A stretch of DNA of 64,000 bases from Candidatus Hadarchaeum sp. (GTDB taxonomy: Archaea; Hadarchaeota; Hadarchaeia; Hadarchaeales; Hadarchaeaceae), in the NCBI RefSeq assembly GCF_049969415.1, contig NZ_JBMFOX010000003.1:1-64000 (forward strand), read 5' to 3'. Below, piece after piece: positions 20,319 to 56,558 of this stretch. Below the pieces are notes generated by a model, which worked only from the letters and a program-made list of their open reading frames with translations, was not told the DNA's origin and did no database searches. Position 1 is the stretch's first letter, and each line of letters begins with the position of its first letter. The position numbers and the translations under genes are program-made.

Positions 20319-21147
20319 AAAGATCCTTGGTCCTCTTGAGCCCGGTTTCGCCGATTTCTGTAGGGTCCCTGCCGGCGAGGTGGTGCAGCTCGACGGTGAT
20401 CCAGCCATCGTAGCCGATTTTTCTCAAGGCGTTGACGATGGGCCTGAAGTTTATCGAGCCCTCTCCGGGCGGCAGGTGGTCGTCGTGCCGGCCCCGGTTA
20501 TCGTGAAAGTGGACGTTGACGATGTGGTCTCCGACCAGCTTTATTTCCTCAGCGATTCTTCTCTCCGGGGAGCTGATGTTCTGCCAGATCTTGTTCAGGA
20601 AGGCGTGCCCCACATCGAAGGTTATCCCCAAGCCGTCGAGCTCTTTGACCAGCGGTAGCATTTCTTGGGGAGAGGAGTAGGGAAATTCCGCCGCCATGGG
20701 GAAGTTTTCCAGGGCCAGTTTCACGCCCCGGCTGCGGGCATATTCCAGCGATTCTTGAGTAAATCTCAGGAAACGCTCTCGTGCCGGAGAAAGAAAATTT
20801 TTCACCCGTGGGAAGGGGCATCTTCCCGGATGGACCACCACAATTTCACCACCTAGGGCGCTGCAGACGTCGATGCTTTTCCTCATGTACTTCAGCGCCA
20901 GCCTTCTGATCGTGCTGTGCCAGCTGAGCGGGTTGAGGTCCCAGATCGGCCCGTGGATGGAGGCGCCTAGGCCGTAGGAGTCAATCAGCTTTTTGAGACT
21001 AGGCAGCACCCTCAGGCTGGTGTTCGGGGGAAAGTTGGGCAAGTCGAAGATTAGCTCCACATGATCGGCGCCGAGTTCGCCGATGTTAGTGATCACCTCT
21101 TCTACCGTGGACTCGGGGAAGAGCAGTCCGGAGAGACCGAATTTCAT
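20308..21147 (-). CDS. Sugar phosphate isomerase/epimerase (AP endonuclease 2 TIM barrel)
   Basis: VVHPG, LALEN, TFDVGH, HFHDNRGRHDDHLPPGEG. Confidence 0.88.
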   Translation of the reverse strand: MKFGLSGLLFPESTVEEVITNIGELGADHVELIFDLPNFPPNTSLRVLPSLKKLIDSYGLGASIHGPIWDLNPLSWHSTIRRLALKYMRKSIDVCSALGGEIVVVHPGRCPFPRVKNFLSPARERFLRFTQESLEYARSRGVKLALENFPMAAEFPYSSPQEMLPLVKELDGLGITFDVGHAFLNKIWQNISSPERRIAEEIKLVGDHIVNVHFHDNRGRHDDHLPPGEGSINFRPIVNALRKIGYDGWITVELHHLAGRDPTEIGETGLKRTKDLFRF

Positions 21148-22593: not shown

Positions 22594-23673
22594 TTGTCGC
22601 GGGCGACCCCCGAGGATCACGTACTGATGTCGTTGGCGATAAAGAGGGTAGGCAGATTTGTTGAGCTTTCCCATATCCAAGAGAAGATAAGCCGCGATGC
22701 CGGCAGGAAGTTTTCCGAGGAGGAGACGAGACAGCTCCTGGACTCCTTGGTGAAGAATGGCCTAGTGGTGGAGAAGGCGGGCGAGTATTCCCTGTCCGAC
22801 CGCGGCCGGGAATATTTTGAGAAGAGGTGGCGCCAGATCAGGTCGGAGCTGAACCAGGATTATCTCAAGGTCTACCGGGCCAAACGTTATTATCCCCAAG
22901 TGGTCGATGTTCTGCTTGAGTTCTGCCGCGACCGCTGGGTCTCGGTTTTCAGGCTCTTCACCGGCAGGGCTTGGCTGCAGCGGAAGCTGGGGCCCAAATA
23001 CATCACGATCAAGAGCCGAGAGGATATCGAGAGGTGGTTGGATATCCACGGTATCGACTTCATTCCCTACCTGCACCGGGTGGGCAGCGACCGTCCCGAC
23101 TGGCTGGTCATTGACTTTGATGCGGGAAAGGGGGTTCCTCTGGAGGAGACCAAAAAGGTGGTCCGGACGGCGCATGAGGTGTTGGTGGGTTATGGGGTCG
23201 AACCGGCGCTGAAGTTCTCGGGATCGCGCGGTTTCCAGATCTGGGCGCGGTTCAAGCCCCACGAGTTGCCGCCAGACTACCGGCCCAAGCCGCTCAGGAC
23301 CGAGAGGAGGGAGCGCAACCTCTTTAGCTTCTATGCGGACATCGTCAGATTTGTGGAGTCGCGGGTTGCCGAGAAGCTGCCCGGGCTGACGACTTCAGAG
23401 ACGGCGAAAAAGGAGGAACGGGCCAACAAGGTCCTGCTCGATGCCTCGATTATCAAACCCATGGGTGATGTCCGGGCTCCTTACAGCATGCACTACAAGA
23501 CCGGACTGATTTCCATGCCGCTGTCAATTGGGGAGTTGACGAAGTTTGTTCCCGACCGGGCTGACCCCGAGCTGGTGGCCGAACGCTATCGGGAGAGGGG
23601 CAACGAGTTCCAGCCGAGGGAGTGTGACGGAGAGGAACTCTTCAAAGACACCGTGGAATGGTGTCGCGCCTGA
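22594..23673 (+). CDS. LigD-type primase-polymerase (AEP) with probable N-terminal winged helix
   Basis: DRPDWLVIDFD, KFSGSRGFQI, KVLLD, VRAPYS; wing-like GLVVEKAGEYSLSDRGREY. Confidence 0.75.
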   Translation: MSRATPEDHVLMSLAIKRVGRFVELSHIQEKISRDAGRKFSEEETRQLLDSLVKNGLVVEKAGEYSLSDRGREYFEKRWRQIRSELNQDYLKVYRAKRYYPQVVDVLLEFCRDRWVSVFRLFTGRAWLQRKLGPKYITIKSREDIERWLDIHGIDFIPYLHRVGSDRPDWLVIDFDAGKGVPLEETKKVVRTAHEVLVGYGVEPALKFSGSRGFQIWARFKPHELPPDYRPKPLRTERRERNLFSFYADIVRFVESRVAEKLPGLTTSETAKKEERANKVLLDASIIKPMGDVRAPYSMHYKTGLISMPLSIGELTKFVPDRADPELVAERYRERGNEFQPRECDGEELFKDTVEWCRA

Positions 23674-26534: not shown

Positions 26535-26646
26535 TGGCGGGCCCGGTGGGATTCGAACCCACGACCGATCGGTTAGCTCCCAATCGACCGTTAAGAGCCG
26601 ATTGCTTTTGGCCGGAAACCCGACTGCCAGACTGAGCCACGGGCCC
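26535..26646 (-). tRNA. tRNA-Lys(CTT) with two introns (22/23 and 37/38)
   Basis: Removing 26607-26623 and 26574-26591 gives GGGCCCGTGGCTCAGTCTGGCAGAGCAATCGGCTCTTAACCGATCGGTCGTGGGTTCGAATCCCACCGGGCCCGCCA; BHB motif at both introns. Confidence 0.93.
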
Positions 26647-33517: not shown

Positions 33518-33571
33518 ACCTAGTTTTCGGCGTGAACATTTTTAATCTGAAAAACGAGTTTATTCGGTTGC

Positions 33572-34348
33572 ATGCGGCTGCTGCTCCGGCTGAAGTCGGT
33601 TAAGGATCAGTTCTATGACCTGAGGTACCACCACAAGCTCCAGGGGTTCATCTACAGCCTGCTTGATGGGTCGCCCTACGTCAGGCTGCATGATAAAAGG
33701 GGATACAAGTTCTTCTGCTTCTCGAACATCTTTCCTGAAAGGGGCGAGAAAAATGATCCAGCCCAGGACATGTCGGCAGGCGAGGTCAGGCAGCTTTTGA
33801 TCTCTTCGCCGGAGGTTGGGCTGATCGGGTTTTTGAATGACAGATTGGTTAAGATTGTGGATGAAAGAGCTGAGGTCAACATCGGGGACATGTCCTTTAG
33901 GGTCGAGTCGGTTAACGCCCTTGAGCCTAGACTGGGCAGGTCATGCAGGCTGGTCACCGGGACGCCGATCGTGCTCCGCATACCAAAGGAGAGGTTTGAG
34001 AGCTACGGCATCGTTCCGCCTAGGGATTACGATTACGTTTACTGGAGAAAGGAATGGCCCTTTGAACCCTTCGTAAAGCAGCTGGAGGAAAACCTGTTTA
34101 AGAAATATCGCGAGTTTTACGGCGGGGCGGCCGAGGAGTTCCCCATCTTTGAGCAGTTCGTGTTCAAGAAGACGGTCTGCAATCACGTCGTAATGGGGGG
34201 GAAGGAGGTCAAGATGCTCGGTTCCATCTGGGAGTTCCACTTCAGCTATTTGGAGGGCAAAAAGCGGGAGTTGATTCAGTTTGGTCTGGATGCCGGGTTC
34301 GGAGAGCTGAACTCAATGGGGTTCGGGTTTATGAACGTGGTGAGGTGA
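33572..34348 (+). CDS. cas6: CRISPR-associated endoribonuclease Cas6
   Basis: HDKRGYKFFCFSNIF, ISSP, C-terminal G-rich loop GFGELNSMGFG. Confidence 0.93.
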   Translation: MRLLLRLKSVKDQFYDLRYHHKLQGFIYSLLDGSPYVRLHDKRGYKFFCFSNIFPERGEKNDPAQDMSAGEVRQLLISSPEVGLIGFLNDRLVKIVDERAEVNIGDMSFRVESVNALEPRLGRSCRLVTGTPIVLRIPKERFESYGIVPPRDYDYVYWRKEWPFEPFVKQLEENLFKKYREFYGGAAEEFPIFEQFVFKKTVCNHVVMGGKEVKMLGSIWEFHFSYLEGKKRELIQFGLDAGFGELNSMGFGFMNVVR

Positions 34349-34415
34349 AAAGGGTTGGTTCGGGTCAGATGGTGAAAGCTTATTTTTACAGCGACAGAAT
34401 GTTGGGCGGGAGAAG

Positions 34416-34823
34416 ATGGGTGAAAAAGAGGAGATAATCAAGAAAATCGTGGAGACTCTGTGGGGTTTTAAAGAGGTTGAGCTGGCTTACGTGTTCGGCT
34501 CCTTTTACGCCGGGAGAGAGTTTGAGGACATAGACATCGCGATATTGTTATCGAAGCCACCCTCGGCGTACGAGTCCGAGAGGTTTGCCATGAAGGTCGC
34601 GGGGGCGCTTGAAACTGCGCTGGGGCACAAATTTGAGTTCGACGTGAAGGTTCTCAATTTCTCCCCGATCTACTTCCAGCATGAGGTCATCAGGGACGGC
34701 AAACTGCTCTTTTGCAGGGATGAAACCAAACGGGTCGAGTATGAGGCCGGGGTTCTGTCCGAGTACCTGGACTATCGGGAGGTCCTGGACTGGTTTGATG
34801 AAAAATTGCTCGCGAGGGCTTGA
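34416..34823 (+). CDS. Minimal nucleotidyltransferase (MntA-type antitoxin)
   Basis: AYVFGS...EDIDIAI; FDVKVLN; EVIRDG. Confidence 0.9.
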   Translation: MGEKEEIIKKIVETLWGFKEVELAYVFGSFYAGREFEDIDIAILLSKPPSAYESERFAMKVAGALETALGHKFEFDVKVLNFSPIYFQHEVIRDGKLLFCRDETKRVEYEAGVLSEYLDYREVLDWFDEKLLARA

Positions 34824-34824
34824 G

Positions 34825-35253
34825 ATGTTCGACAAAAGGGGGATAATTGATCACATAAGGGAACTCGAGCAGGCGATGGAGGACTGGCGGAGGTACCGGA
34901 GCATCCCGCTCGAGGAGTTGCGGCGGGATAGGGACAAGCGGAACATGGTCCTGCACGCCCTGCTGGTCGGCATCCAGGCAACGATCGACATAGCGAACCA
35001 CCTGATAGCCGAGCGTAGCCTGAAAAGGCCATCGACCTACCGGGAGAGCTTTCAGATACTCTCGGAGACGGGCTTGATCCCATCCGGGCTCTCCGATGGG
35101 CTGTCGGAACTGGCCGGTTTCAGAAATGTGCTGGTCCACCTCTACTGGGGGCTCGATATCGAAAAGGTTTACGGGGTATTGGTGTCCGGGCTGAAGGTCG
35201 TGGAGGAGTTTGGAAAACTTGTGAAAAAAATGATATCCTCAGGGGGTCCTTAG
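34825..35253 (+). CDS. DUF86/HEPN RNase toxin (HepT type)
   Basis: PSTYRESF and FRNVLVHLY (Rx4H motif). Confidence 0.9.
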   Translation: MFDKRGIIDHIRELEQAMEDWRRYRSIPLEELRRDRDKRNMVLHALLVGIQATIDIANHLIAERSLKRPSTYRESFQILSETGLIPSGLSDGLSELAGFRNVLVHLYWGLDIEKVYGVLVSGLKVVEEFGKLVKKMISSGGP

Positions 35254-35277
35254 AGGTGTTGGCCTTTACTTGCTGGG

Positions 35278-35630
35278 TTGAGGGCCAGAGGGCGGACGCT
35301 GAAAACGCGCAACTACCCTATCGTTCCGGACAGAAAGTCGATGATCGGGCTGGACCTCAAGGGGATTTACGACGAGATGGGCAGGCGCACCTTCGGTAGA
35401 TGGATGTCGTTCAAGGGGATGAATATCCACATGGTCTCAGCTGAGGCGGCGTTCCACACATCGCTGAAGTGATTGCAGTTAAGATGAATATCCACATGGT
35501 CTCAGCTGAGGGCACCATCGCCAGCAAGGTGGTGTTCGGCAGCGAGCAGGACCTAAAGGACGCCGAGGTGAAAGATTGTAGGGGGCATCACCAGATTGGA
35601 ACCTTCCCCCTTTTCATACGCGCTTTTTAG
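35278..35630 (+). pseudogene. Fragment resembling a DUF6036/AbiEii-like nucleotidyltransferase C-terminus, interrupted by the repeat-spacer unit
   Basis: Deleting one 65-nt period restores LDLKGIYDEMGRRTFGRWMSFKGMNIHMVSAEGTIASKVVFGSEQDLKDAE; family call is from motif recall. Confidence 0.5.
35418..35511. CRISPR. Minimal CRISPR-like unit: two identical 29-nt repeats and a 36-nt spacer
   Basis: GATGAATATCCACATGGTCTCAGCTGAGG at 35418-35446 and 35483-35511; internal palindrome CTCAGCTGAG; about 1.1 kb from cas6. Confidence 0.6.
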
Positions 35631-36347
35631 GGGTCCGCTGAAAAGTTTTGAGGACTAGCTGAATCAAGTCGTTGTTCTTGGAAAAAGGGCGGAGATGCCG
35701 GCTCCGTCCTCGGGAGGGAAGCCAGAGAAGGCAGCGAAAGCGACGTTTTGGTGGAGATCGAAAGCAATATGAGTTTGCTCGATTTCGTGGTGGCTCAAGC
35801 CGGAGATAGAAGTTTGGGAGAGAAAAATCGATTTGGTTGAATATGGCATGATTAAGCCCCTTCATAGAGTGAGGATCAAAGAGCAAGCGGCAACCTGCGA
35901 AGAGGGTTGTGAAGGTATACTCCGCAATATCTTAGAAAACATCTTAAAAAATAGAAGAATGCATCAAGGCGGTTTCCAAAATAGGGGACTCGTTTATACT
36001 TTGGTTTTAAATTGGAGAGAACTTTGAAAATAGTTAAAGATTACATTCCGGATTTGGAAGGTAAAATGAAGATGTAAGAAGTTCTCCCAAAAGGAGTCCC
36101 GTAGATACGGCTTTTACGGGAGAAAAGGAAGGCGCTCGGATAAATCCAAGGTGAGTTGGTGCAACTTTCTAATTACAATGACAAACAATGCCTCTGGAGA
36201 GCGGCCCTGTGTCAGCGGACTAATAGTCCATCTCAATTTTTACAAATTCGAAAAAATGGTAACAACCACCCCTCCGGTCAGCTGAGAGCGAGATGACGTT
36301 AAGGAGGAAAAACAGGGCGATTTTAAGATTCCTTGGCGGGGCGGCTG

Positions 36348-37709
36348 TCAGCGCTTGCTGAGGCTCTTTAGAACACCAACGATTTTCCCTGCCTCTTCCA
36401 CCAGTCTGTCTGCGGTTCTCCTCTCCATCGGCGTGGAGATGCAGAACATCCCCCGCGGCGAGATGAAGATGCCCTCGTTGAGCAGGGAGAAGAAGAAGAC
36501 CCGCGCCGCGATCTCGTCAGCGGCCATCGCGCTCCGATAATCGACGACCTCCCCCCTGGTGAAGTGGACATGGCGCAGTGAACCGGCCCCCGTCACCCGT
36601 GCAGCGACATCGGCCTCGGCAAAAATCTTCTTCAGCTCCTGGGCCAAGTATTCCCCCATCCGGTTGATCCTGTCGATGGCCGTGGCGTTCAGTAGCTTCA
36701 GCGTCGCCATGCCCGCCACCATCGCCAGCGCGTTCCCGTTGAAGGTCCCGGCGTGGTGGATGAACTCCCGCCGCTCGGGCGAGAAGAGCTCCATGACTTC
36801 CTCGCGGCCGCCGAAGGCCCCGGCGGGAAGGTCGCCCCCGATTATCTTTCCGAAGGTGGTGACGTCAGAGGTCACGCCGAAGAATTCCTGCGCCCCGCCC
36901 ACGGCCAGCCGCGCCGTCATCACCTCGTCGAAGATCAGCAGGACATCGTTTGCCTCGGTGATCTCCCGCAGGAATTGCAGGTAGCCCGGCCTCGGCGGTA
37001 TCTGCCCAGCGATGCCCAGCATCGGCTCGACGATGACGGCCGCCAGCTCCCTCCGGTTTTGTCTGATGATCCTCTCCGCGGCTTCAGCGTTGTTGAACGG
37101 GGCCACGAGGACCTCCCGGGCGACGCCCTTCGGTATTCCGGGACTGTCGGGCAGGCTCAGCGGGCTCTCGGCCTCTCCGGCAAGCTCCGGGCGCGGTCGG
37201 GCGCTGATCTCGACCTCCGGATAGCTGCCGTGATAGCCCCCTTCCATCTTCAGGATCTTGTCCCTGCCCGTGTAGGCTCGGGCGGCCCGGATGGCCATCA
37301 TGTTGGCCTCGGTGCCCGAGTTGCAGAACCTGATCCTTTCCACAGACCTGAACCTCCGGCAGATGATTTCGGCGAGGCGGTGCTGGGATTCGATGGCGGC
37401 GGCGCAGGTCCAGCCCCTCTCCAGCTGCTCCTTGATCGCCGCGACGATCCGGGGGTGGGCGTGGCCGTGAACTGAGGAGGTATAGTTGTTGACGAAATCG
37501 AGGTACCGGTTGCCGTCGACATCGTAGATCCAGCAGCCGCGGCCCCGCGCCATGACAAAGGGATAGGGACTGAAGTAGACCACGCTGCGCGTGTTCCCCC
37601 CGGGCAGAAATTTCCTCGCCCGTGCATGGATTCTCCTAGAGGCGGGCGTCCTGCGCCGGTACTCCTGCAGGCAGGCTTTCAGCGGGTCAACCCCAGGCAT
37701 AAACTCCAC
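36348..37709 (-). CDS. Class III aminotransferase (glutamate-1-semialdehyde aminomutase-like)
   Basis: FCNSGTEA, GGYHG, IFDEVMT, TFGKIIGG, GTFNGN. Confidence 0.88.
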   Translation of the reverse strand: MEFMPGVDPLKACLQEYRRRTPASRRIHARARKFLPGGNTRSVVYFSPYPFVMARGRGCWIYDVDGNRYLDFVNNYTSSVHGHAHPRIVAAIKEQLERGWTCAAAIESQHRLAEIICRRFRSVERIRFCNSGTEANMMAIRAARAYTGRDKILKMEGGYHGSYPEVEISARPRPELAGEAESPLSLPDSPGIPKGVAREVLVAPFNNAEAAERIIRQNRRELAAVIVEPMLGIAGQIPPRPGYLQFLREITEANDVLLIFDEVMTARLAVGGAQEFFGVTSDVTTFGKIIGGDLPAGAFGGREEVMELFSPERREFIHHAGTFNGNALAMVAGMATLKLLNATAIDRINRMGEYLAQELKKIFAEADVAARVTGAGSLRHVHFTRGEVVDYRSAMAADEIAARVFFFSLLNEGIFISPRGMFCISTPMERRTADRLVEEAGKIVGVLKSLSKR

Positions 37710-45090: not shown

Positions 45091-45150
45091 GCCCAGCGGG
45101 ACGGCGGCAAAGCAAACAGATTAATGCCGGTGTTGGGAAATAATTTCGGT

Positions 45151-45287
45151 AGCCCGGTGGGGTAGACCGACTGGGGTCGGGCCCAATGGTCAATCCTGCG
45201 GGCCTTTGGAGCCTGCGACGGCGGAGGGCAATAACCCGCCGAATTCGAACGTCGACGGGTCGACCGAATTTCCGCCCCGGGCTACCA
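45151..45287 (+). tRNA. tRNA-Gln(TTG) with three introns (15/16, 53/54, 59/60)
   Basis: Removing 45166-45186, 45225-45243 and 45250-45270 gives AGCCCGGTGGGGTAGTGGTCAATCCTGCGGGCCTTTGGAGCCTGCGACGGCGGTTCGAATCCGCCCCGGGCTACCA; A1-U72 pair as in archaeal tRNA-Gln. Confidence 0.92.
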
Positions 45288-46946: not shown

Positions 46947-47102
46947 ATAACCACCGCTTTAACTAGGTGAAGTACCATTTAGACGGTTTCGGAACGCCGG
47001 AGCATGGGCACTGAGTTTGTTCTCAGGGCGAGTTTCCAAAAAATGGACTAGGAAGTAGGCCAATATCAAGGCTTTTTTATCCTTTCGAAGTAGTAATCTT
47101 GT

Positions 47103-47235
47103 AGCCCCGTGGGGTAGACCCGCCGCTGGCGGGGCCCATCGGTCAATCCTGGCGGGCACCAGCTGGCCGCAATCTGGACCCGCTGACCCCGGTTCGAAAT
47201 CGACAGCGTCGACGGGAATCCGGGCGGGGCTACCA
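47103..47235 (+). tRNA. tRNA-Gln(CTG) with three introns (15/16, 32/33, 59/60)
   Basis: Removing 47118-47139, 47158-47172 and 47199-47218 gives AGCCCCGTGGGGTAGCGGTCAATCCTGGCGGGCTCTGGACCCGCTGACCCCGGTTCGAATCCGGGCGGGGCTACCA. Confidence 0.92.
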
Positions 47236-50961: not shown

Positions 50962-51094
50962 CTGACTGCGGGATTGCTGAGGTGTCAGTCCTTTTGTGTT
51001 TATAAAAAAGAAGACTTTTGAAGTAGCTATGGTTTTTTTGAAGGTTAAAAATTCAAATTACATCCGGACCATAATTTCTTAACCGATGATAAGG

Positions 51095-51169
51095 GGCCAG
51101 GGCCGGGATTTGAACCCGGGACGCAGGCTCCACAGGCCCGAATGTTAACCAAGCTACACCACCCTGGCC
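51095..51169 (-). tRNA. tRNA-His(GTG), intron-less, G-1 encoded
   Basis: G-GCCAGGGTGGTGTAGCTTGGTTAACATTCGGGCCTGTGGAGCCTGCGTCCCGGGTTCAAATCCCGGCCCTGGCC. Confidence 0.95.
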
Positions 51170-56126: not shown

Positions 56127-56388
56127 CCGTGCCAAATCCCCATGCATCGCGTGGGTTGCACTGCGCTGCCCAACATCCTCGCTTTGCTGGGGCAGAGTAT
56201 GGTTTGATTTCTATCTCATTTTGTCGGTTTAATTTTTCGCGATGGCGATGGTAGGGCAACAACCGGCGTTTTGAGGGATATAAACCTAGATGGAAATTCA
56301 AACCGTGCTCAAAAATCGATCCTTGTCAATAGGCCTCCTTTGACAGAAATCCGCCGGTATCTTCCTCATTCGGTTCAGTGAAAAAAGG

Positions 56389-56558
56389 TGCGGGGGGAGG
56401 GATTTGAACCCTCAACATTCGGATATCAGACCTAGGAGTCTTCAGTTTTGCCCCTTGAGAGCTGTCCCCCAAGGTCCGACACTATTGAGCCAGGTTTTAC
56501 CTGGTCTCCCATTTCAATCCGGTGGCGGCTTTCCACCAGATGGTTGAGTTACCCCCGC
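56389..56558 (-). tRNA. tRNA-Phe(GAA) with four introns (17/17a, 22/23, 30/31, 37/38)
   Basis: Removing 56512-56541, 56484-56505, 56447-56475 and 56425-56439 gives the 74-nt GCGGGGGTAACTCAACCTGGGAGAGTGTCGGACTGAAGATCCGAATGTTGAGGGTTCAAATCCCTCCCCCCGCA with all four stems paired. Confidence 0.9.

Follow-up and report, generated by a model that had tools for sequence, protein, structure and literature searches.

A repeat-insert-repeat unit inside a small gene

We analysed a stretch of 64,000 nucleotides (nt) from the archaeon Candidatus Hadarchaeum sp. (contig NZ_JBMFOX010000003.1, positions 1 to 64,000 of the forward strand), referred to here as the window. The subject is a small protein-coding gene at 35278-35630 that is split by a unit composed of two identical repeats and a unique insert between them, in the form of a CRISPR array with a single spacer. 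The gene and the unit consist of the following parts, where P0002 and P0004 are homologous proteins found by database search and described below.

35278..35417, plus strand: 5' part of the small gene, which is distantly DUF6036-like; TTG start; homologous to P0002 and P0004; positive codon score in one frame only
35418..35446, plus strand: copy 1 of the duplication; coding, with the in-frame part MNIHMVSAE; contains CTCAGCTGAG; aligns with P0004 residues 48-55
35447..35482, plus strand: unique insert of spacer length; 8 codons in the frame of the gene, then a stop at 35470-35472
35483..35511, plus strand: copy 2 of the duplication; same sequence as copy 1; alignment to P0004 residues 48-56
35512..35630, plus strand: 3' part of the small gene; motif in common with P0004 up to 35567; stop at 35628-35630

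The 29-nt string GATGAATATCCACATGGTCTCAGCTGAGG is present twice, at 35418-35446 and at 35483-35511, with 100% identity and 65 nt from start to start. Between the copies sits a 36-nt string, CGGCGTTCCACACATCGCTGAAGTGATTGCAGTTAA (35447-35482), and the whole unit measures 94 nt. The bases that border the copies differ on both sides (G versus A upstream, C versus G downstream). This fixes the duplication at exactly 29 nt and the period at 65 nt. The duplicated segment has a G at its first and at its last position. A perfect 29-nt duplication around 36 nt of unique sequence had been described in an earlier note on this DNA, and direct inspection of the sequence bears it out. The same note had placed the unit at a palindromic site about 1 kb from cas6. 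This is also correct: the 10-nt palindrome CTCAGCTGAG occurs once per copy, at 35436-35445 and 35501-35510, and the distance from the cas6 stop codon to copy 1 is 1,069 nt.

A chance origin of the 29-nt pair is excluded. Perfect repeats of this length at most 100 nt apart are expected about 2e-11 times in 64 kb, and in a control with 100 shuffles the spacer pattern was never matched and the repeat pattern never matched twice. When the window was scanned for perfect direct repeats of at least 15 nt at a spacing of up to 150 nt, this pair was the only one found. There is no further copy of the 29-mer or of the 36-mer within the window at up to three mismatches.

As for the insert itself, it has no terminal inverted repeats, as read from the sequence, and it resembles neither flank closely enough to be a diverged copy of it (p=0.12 and 0.72, with p=0.12 for its resemblance to the start of the downstream piece). 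No source for it was found in the window or in six other loci that carry relatives of the neighbouring Cas6.

The split gene and its homologues

Removal of one 65-nt period joins the open reading frame (ORF) at 35278-35472 to the frame of 35484-35630, as had been predicted, and gives a gene of about 95 codons that runs from the TTG at 35278 to the stop that ends at 35630. The open frame says little when taken alone, given that 39 more stop-free codons would arise about 1 time in 5 by chance, on a rough estimate. Codon usage is more telling. In frame, the window's true genes score 0.64 +/- 0.26 per codon, compared to about -0.65 +/- 0.25 when they are read out of frame. Scored in the same way, the upstream piece with the repeat reaches 0.27 and the repeat with the downstream piece 0.60 (0.60-0.63 for the 3' part). 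Positive scores are confined to the frames that the repeat links, and copy 2 shares the codon phase of copy 1 relative to the downstream part.

Homologues of the gene are few. A profile (A1) was made from an alignment of two window fragments, of which hmmbuild kept only the first fragment's 63 positions, so that the upstream piece alone was tested. An exhaustive search with this profile against 1,835,955,588 representatives returned two proteins: the window's own ORF (P0001) and P0002, a partial protein of 67 residues from a metagenome-assembled genome (MAG) of Euryarchaeota (E=2.3e-4). Searching with P0002 then recovered P0004, of 111 residues. For the downstream piece, a word-index search gave four candidates among longer proteins, none of which held up, and a near-match search of the same kind returned only the window's own 48-residue protein.

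P0004 matches both sides of the unit. By BLASTP, the upstream piece through copy 1 is identical to residues 8-55 of P0004 at 16 of 48 positions (E=1e-6), and copy 2 with the downstream piece is identical to residues 48-74 at 16 of 27 positions without a gap (E=2e-10). When P0004 was searched against the window by tblastn, residues 8-55 fell on 35308-35445 in frame 1 and residues 49-74 on 35490-35567 in frame 3, each with E=1.8e-8. These two matches overlap at residues 49-55 of P0004, which correspond to the peptide encoded by the repeat, and this peptide is present once in P0004. The rejoined peptide aligns with residues 8-74 as one block, with a score of 131 compared to 62 for the unaltered ORF. 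This alignment has no gap at the junction and a single gap of two residues upstream of it.

The repeat is coding sequence of the small gene. The earlier note had suggested this, and the suggestion is upheld by P0004, a single-copy protein that spans the junction ungapped and gives the rejoined peptide a homologue; codon usage agrees. Because the segment occurs only once in P0004, joined there to both flanks, the single-copy state is the ancestral one and the 65 nt consist of a target duplication plus an insert. The pre-insertion state is here that of the homologue P0004, rather than that of an allele from the same species.

The insert truncates the protein. After copy 1 the frame continues for 8 foreign codons to the stop at 35470-35472, and the best-conserved motif, at the C-terminal end, is cut off. 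Since the frame shift and the stop remove this motif, the truncated protein is most likely inactive. The term gene remnant, used previously for this locus, applies in part. The TTG at 35278 lies three codons upstream of the position aligned with P0004 residue 1, and the 5' end of the gene looks complete. At the other end the last 20 or so codons diverge from P0004, with no counterpart among its final 37 residues, and the 3' end of the gene has either diverged or been damaged.

P0002 does not separate the rejoined reading from the unaltered one, as it scores 93 with both. Its similarity to P0004 ends right after the segment that matches the repeat, and its tail does not match the downstream piece. 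To judge from these alignments, P0002 itself appears to be degraded, at nearly the same place.

A further possibility is that the 65 nt are an archaeal mRNA intron or another programmed element. The length of 65 is not a multiple of 3 and its removal restores a conserved protein. In the predicted fold of the RNA the two palindromes pair, and a helix of about 13 bp loops out the insert (z=-1.88, with 9 of 200 shuffles as stable). This helix is plain and continuous, with no bulge-helix-bulge in either the minimum-energy or the centroid fold, and the predicted energy is unremarkable. No Rfam family matched. Direct repeats at both borders are moreover the mark of a DNA insertion, and not of known archaeal introns. 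We give this explanation almost no credence.

Relation to DUF6036 and AbiEii

The earlier note had likened the C-terminal pattern of the rejoined peptide to that of DUF6036/AbiEii-like nucleotidyltransferases. The likeness holds to a degree for P0004, which matches Pfam DUF6036 (PF19502) with E=4.2e-4 and 20.6 bits, under the cut-off of 23.6, over positions 82-133 of a profile of 164; just 39 residues of P0004 precede the match. It does not extend to the window pieces, which match nothing in Pfam or PADLOC at E<=10. Among the ESM Atlas matches of the downstream piece, 13 of 30 fall in clusters with some DUF6036 members (25% in the cluster listed) and three in clusters that contain AbiEii, at scores of 0.90-0.92, a range attained by 4-10 of every 100 shuffled proteins. 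Against solved structures, both A1 and P0004 found chance-level matches only (E of at least 0.2).

The split gene thus bears a distant likeness to DUF6036 in sequence and is not a member of that family. Compared with DUF6036 (PF19502) and AbiEii (PF08843), P0004 resembles the C-terminal half of DUF6036. Both P0004 and the window gene are only about 95-111 residues long and are without the N-terminal nucleotidyltransferase part.

Genomic surroundings

The window is archaeal in content, with genes for diphthine synthase, exosome and proteasome subunits, O-phosphoseryl-tRNA synthetase and the archaeal riboflavin pathway, and its guanine-plus-cytosine (GC) fraction is 0.57. The split gene stands in a low-GC islet with the following features.

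33550..36350, no strand assigned: low-GC islet; comprises cas6, mntA-hepT, the split gene and, after it, some 700 nt of AT-rich non-coding DNA
33572..34348, plus strand: lone cas6, a Cas6b-like endoribonuclease of 258 residues; TIGR01877, E=1.7e-30, 107 bits (cut-off 58.65)
34416..34823, plus strand: mntA, nucleotidyltransferase antitoxin of a type VII toxin-antitoxin system; NF047752, E=9.8e-21, 73.6 bits (cut-off 60); Pfam Polbeta
34681..35253, plus strand: hepT, HEPN RNase toxin; NF047751, E=1.2e-30, 105.8 bits (cut-off 60); Pfam HepT-like

The islet, of about 2.8 kb, has a GC fraction of 0.39-0.59 in 300-nt windows, compared to 0.62-0.67 in its flanks, with a TauE-family gene on one side and an aminotransferase gene on the other. 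It may have been acquired horizontally or may be the remainder of a cas locus. The cas6 product also matches the Pfam families Cas_Cas6_C and Cas6_I-A, and its best PADLOC model is Cas6b (E=1e-55). In the case of hepT, the true start is probably downstream of 34681, as the family match does not begin until residue 59.

Downstream of the split gene, about 700 nt (35631-36347, GC 0.45) hold no recognised gene. Within them, at 36014-36089, lies an inverted repeat with arms of 11 and 10 nt about 55 nt apart, and the same segment gives a weak hairpin-type Rfam match on each strand, with E=1.1 and 4.8 and scores that fall far short of gathering.

Some observations concern the window at large. A 109-nt transfer RNA (tRNA) gene at 26538-26646 on the minus strand is recognised by Rfam (44.9 bits) and unreported by ARAGORN; it probably contains an intron. 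At 56385-56411, where neither ARAGORN nor Rfam calls a tRNA, 27 nt share 81% identity with the last part of the tRNA-His gene (51091-51117); they may be a piece of a tRNA, for example an old attachment site. Two GC-rich 39-nt copies, at 45149-45187 and 47101-47139, are 77% alike and 1,952 nt apart, each with a hairpin-like inverted repeat. Finally, a protein of 359 residues is encoded at 22594-23673 on the plus strand. It has a LigD primase-polymerase domain (PF21686, E=2.9e-22), and its ORF lacks a ligase domain. The same protein has a weak winged-helix match to HTH_45 (E=0.0019), below the cut-off.

Relatives of Cas6 and their arrays

A genome collection yielded six loci with relatives of the window's Cas6. 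The closest is 74% identical and belongs to a Hadarchaeota MAG (L001), and the closest relatives found are all MAGs. Two of the six loci, L004 and L005, carry complete adaptation modules beside the Cas6 relative, followed by arrays of 30-nt repeats. L004 reads cas6, a protein of 595 residues without a family, cas7, cas5b, cas3, cas4, cas1b and cas2; L005 reads cas6, csm1-5, cas4, cas1b and cas2. Their cas1b genes match TIGR03641 with E=7.7e-143 and 7.1e-130.

The spacers of these two loci are mostly 36 nt long (30 of 46) or 37 nt (14 of 46), with one of 35 nt and one of 39 nt. The CRISPR geometry that had been ascribed to the unit matches the arrays beside relatives of the nearby Cas6, where most spacers have the 36 nt of the insert and the repeats have 30 nt against 29 nt here. 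In the L004 array, two adjacent repeat-plus-spacer units of 66 nt (starting at 20353 and 20419, together 20353-20484) are 100% identical and carry the same spacer.

The order of genes around the window's cas6 recurs. In three of the seven loci compared, cas6 is directly followed by mntA, and by hepT where the contig continues: the window itself (33572-35253), L001 and L003. In L001 (9986-11823) about 850 nt lie between cas6 and mntA, and the contig ends inside mntA. L003 (5504-7119), from a Thermoplasmatales MAG, has the order cas6-mntA-hepT-doc, with cas3 another 2 kb further on. The grouping of cas6, mntA and hepT in different lineages suggests that the three genes may travel or work together. 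No relative of the split gene was found in the six loci; the nearest, L001, is the one that ends inside mntA.

These loci bear on whether the unit could be what is left of a conventional array, namely its last two repeats beside an orphan cas6, with ORFs that arose by chance. The spacing is array-like, cas6 lies 1.07 kb upstream, and in L003 the cas6-mntA-hepT group shares its locus with cas3, so the islet may be the remainder of a cas locus. The protein evidence speaks otherwise: a single uninterrupted part of P0004, where the segment occurs once, is homologous to the residues of the repeat together with the two flanks, and the flanks are gene-like in codon usage, in frames that the repeat links. 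Nor does the 29-mer look like the repeat of a standard array, as it matches none of the array repeats examined (L004, L005 and Rfam). Rfam CRISPR-DR families give no match at E<=10 in 34300-36400 and none at the gathering score across the window. Decayed repeats of the L004/L005 type are missing from 35600-36350 and its vicinity, the best in the window being 19 of 30 and elsewhere. An origin as a vestigial array is largely refuted and in our opinion highly improbable. On visual inspection the 29-mer, read on its minus strand, seemed to resemble type I-B repeats; the likeness proved to be at chance level.

Origin of the unit

The explanation that we favour, and hold to be probable, is ectopic integration by Cas1-Cas2 of the type I-B kind, with both the enzyme and the mechanism inferred. 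A single strike by such an integrase, outside any array, would have fallen on the small gene downstream of cas6-mntA-hepT. The two strands of the target would have been attacked 29 bp apart and a 36-bp prespacer joined between the points of attack. Repair of the gaps would then have copied the 29-bp target on both sides, leaving a repeat-spacer-repeat form in which the 'repeat' is ordinary coding sequence.

The lengths are what points to this enzyme. The 36-nt insert and the 29-nt duplication are both at or within one base of the geometry of the L004 and L005 arrays and, by this analogy, fit type I-B adaptation. A pair of identical repeats that flank one spacer is prone to loss through recombination, as described for synthetic one-spacer arrays in part of PMC10328091, and the perfect identity of the two copies therefore suggests a recent event.

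A different mutational route could have produced the same arrangement, be it repair of a staggered break with filler DNA, template switching during replication, or the two attachment-site copies of an integrated element of which a later deletion spared just 36 nt. Structure alone does not identify an enzyme, and the LigD primase-polymerase protein at 22594-23673 means that end-joining repair may exist in this organism. The locus is also a low-GC islet of accessory genes, and the ESM Atlas matches of the upstream piece are integrase fragments, with a score of 0.89, short of the 0.9 above which such a match counts as more than a lead; P0004, on the other hand, is not an integrase. The insert is without terminal inverted repeats and is unlike the flanks or the rest of the window. 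The attachment-site version needs two events, and under any of these routes the double length match (29 and 36) to type I-B array geometry would be a coincidence. No other process is known to us that would surround a 36-bp insert lacking inverted ends with a perfect duplication of 29 bp. On balance, we regard a route of this kind as unlikely, yet worth keeping in mind.

A transposon or insertion sequence was rejected. Target duplications are usually 2-15 bp for transposases and 14-15 bp for casposons, and 29 nt is too long; the insert has no inverted ends, and there is no transposase among the window ORFs scanned.

Several observations weigh against ectopic integration by Cas1-Cas2. Apart from cas6, no cas family (cas1, cas2 and cas4 included) was detected among the 69 ORFs scanned in the window, and cas1 and cas2 are absent across 33 kb upstream and 28 kb downstream. 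The window has no CRISPR array. There is no non-coding AT-rich leader either, the 140 nt upstream of copy 1 being coding. A search for a protospacer of the insert gave no match with E<1 among 50,697 phage and 72,556 plasmid records. A 24-nt match of 91.7% to a Methanosarcinales virus record (E=5) was judged to be chance.

The comparison with the Cas6 relatives has its own weak points. Four of the six loci have no array within the stretch fetched, and the two relatives that do have arrays are distant (44-49% identity) and belong to other phyla. The duplication, at 29 nt, is one short of the 30-nt repeats in L004 and L005. The best ungapped match of the 29-mer to those repeats is 12 bases, which 31% of random 29-mers from the window equal. 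In Pyrococcus furiosus, off-target sites shared several bases with the native repeat, as reported in the portion of PMC6698737 available. To these points must be added that the two proteins of this locus present in the protein database occur on one contig only, the longest measuring 72,959 nt, which leaves the event without an independent observation.

This last point, together with the metagenomic origin of all the closest relatives found, also raises the question of an artefact of assembly or sequencing that wrote a false loop into the contig, which is itself probably metagenome-assembled. Some assemblers use a k-mer size of 29 nt. A false loop would require reads in which the repeat is attached to the insert at either end, and a unit of 94 nt should be covered by one ordinary short read. 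The insert is unique in sequence and does not resemble a strain variant of the flanks, and nothing else in the window looks misassembled. An artefact is, in our judgement, improbable.

Most likely the unit is inert, a scar that has put a small accessory gene out of action, and not a working array. It has one spacer, no leader, a repeat unlike those of Cas6b relatives and weak self-structure (the predicted fold of the 29-nt repeat alone is -1.9 kcal/mol), all of which argue for a lack of function as an array. The label neo-CRISPR, which the earlier note had proposed, is overstated on the first three of these counts. The alternative is a nascent array that so far has a single spacer and lies beside an orphan cas6, with coding sequence recruited as a new repeat family. 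Read-through transcription from cas6-mntA-hepT would then supply the transcript, the palindrome-bearing repeat would be cut by the neighbouring Cas6b or another nuclease, and the resulting RNA would guide an effector encoded elsewhere in the genome. We consider a nascent array very unlikely.

Significance

Natural cases that show both the target and its uninterrupted state are few, and the origin of new CRISPR arrays is usually argued from experiments in Escherichia coli and from surveys of orphan arrays. The value of the present locus is that a homologue reveals the state before the insertion, that the borders are exact and that the lengths point to a type I-B-like integrase. Taken together, these would make it a clean natural record of mis-aimed adaptation. 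If ectopic integration is the true origin, a mis-aimed adaptation event has knocked out a gene, which illustrates what adaptation can cost an uncultured archaeon. The event would add a new natural case to a phenomenon already known. As a single event in one assembled contig, it carries the weight of a good example and not of a new principle.

Comparison with known systems

The archaeal system closest to the proposed event is that of Pyrococcus furiosus, with 30-bp repeats and 37-bp spacers. In vitro, its Cas1-Cas2 performed full-site integration at non-CRISPR sites with the points of attack 30-31 bp apart, according to the part of PMC6698737 seen, and the off-target attacks were at G or C (Grainy et al. 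2019, PMC6698737, same part). The duplicated segment in the window likewise begins and ends with G. It measures 29 bp, compared to the 30-31 bp between those sites, and its likeness to a native repeat was scored only against the repeats of the Cas6 relatives, where it is at chance level.

The CRISPR system of Clostridium difficile is of type I-B. Arrays in a phage of this species have 29-bp repeats and 34-37-bp spacers, as given in an excerpt of PMC5127024.

Off-target integration that creates new arrays is known from E. coli (Nivala et al. 2018, as described in the available part of bioRxiv 10.1101/148544), with circumstantial evidence in two other species from the same study, per the same source. 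The unit in the window shares with the E. coli arrays, as far as those excerpts describe them, a spacer-length insert and a repeat-length duplication at a non-CRISPR site, in one-spacer form. Products of such off-target (non-canonical) Cas1-Cas2 integration go by the name 'neo-CRISPR', as reported for the type I-E system of E. coli by Nivala, Shipman and Church in 2018. Unlike these, the present case is natural, comes from an uncultured archaeon, lies inside a coding gene and has type I-B-like lengths (29 + 36). It also has no integrase within the 64-kb window and no further spacers.

For isolated arrays, off-target acquisition is one of three proposed origins (PMC13142298, citing Shmakov et al. 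2020, in the portion seen). The unit described here resembles such isolated or orphan arrays, in the terms of that portion, in being a repeat-spacer-repeat structure away from cas1-cas2 for which off-target acquisition is a proposed origin. It differs from them in having one spacer only, in a repeat that is demonstrably coding, and in the single-copy homologue that is known for it.

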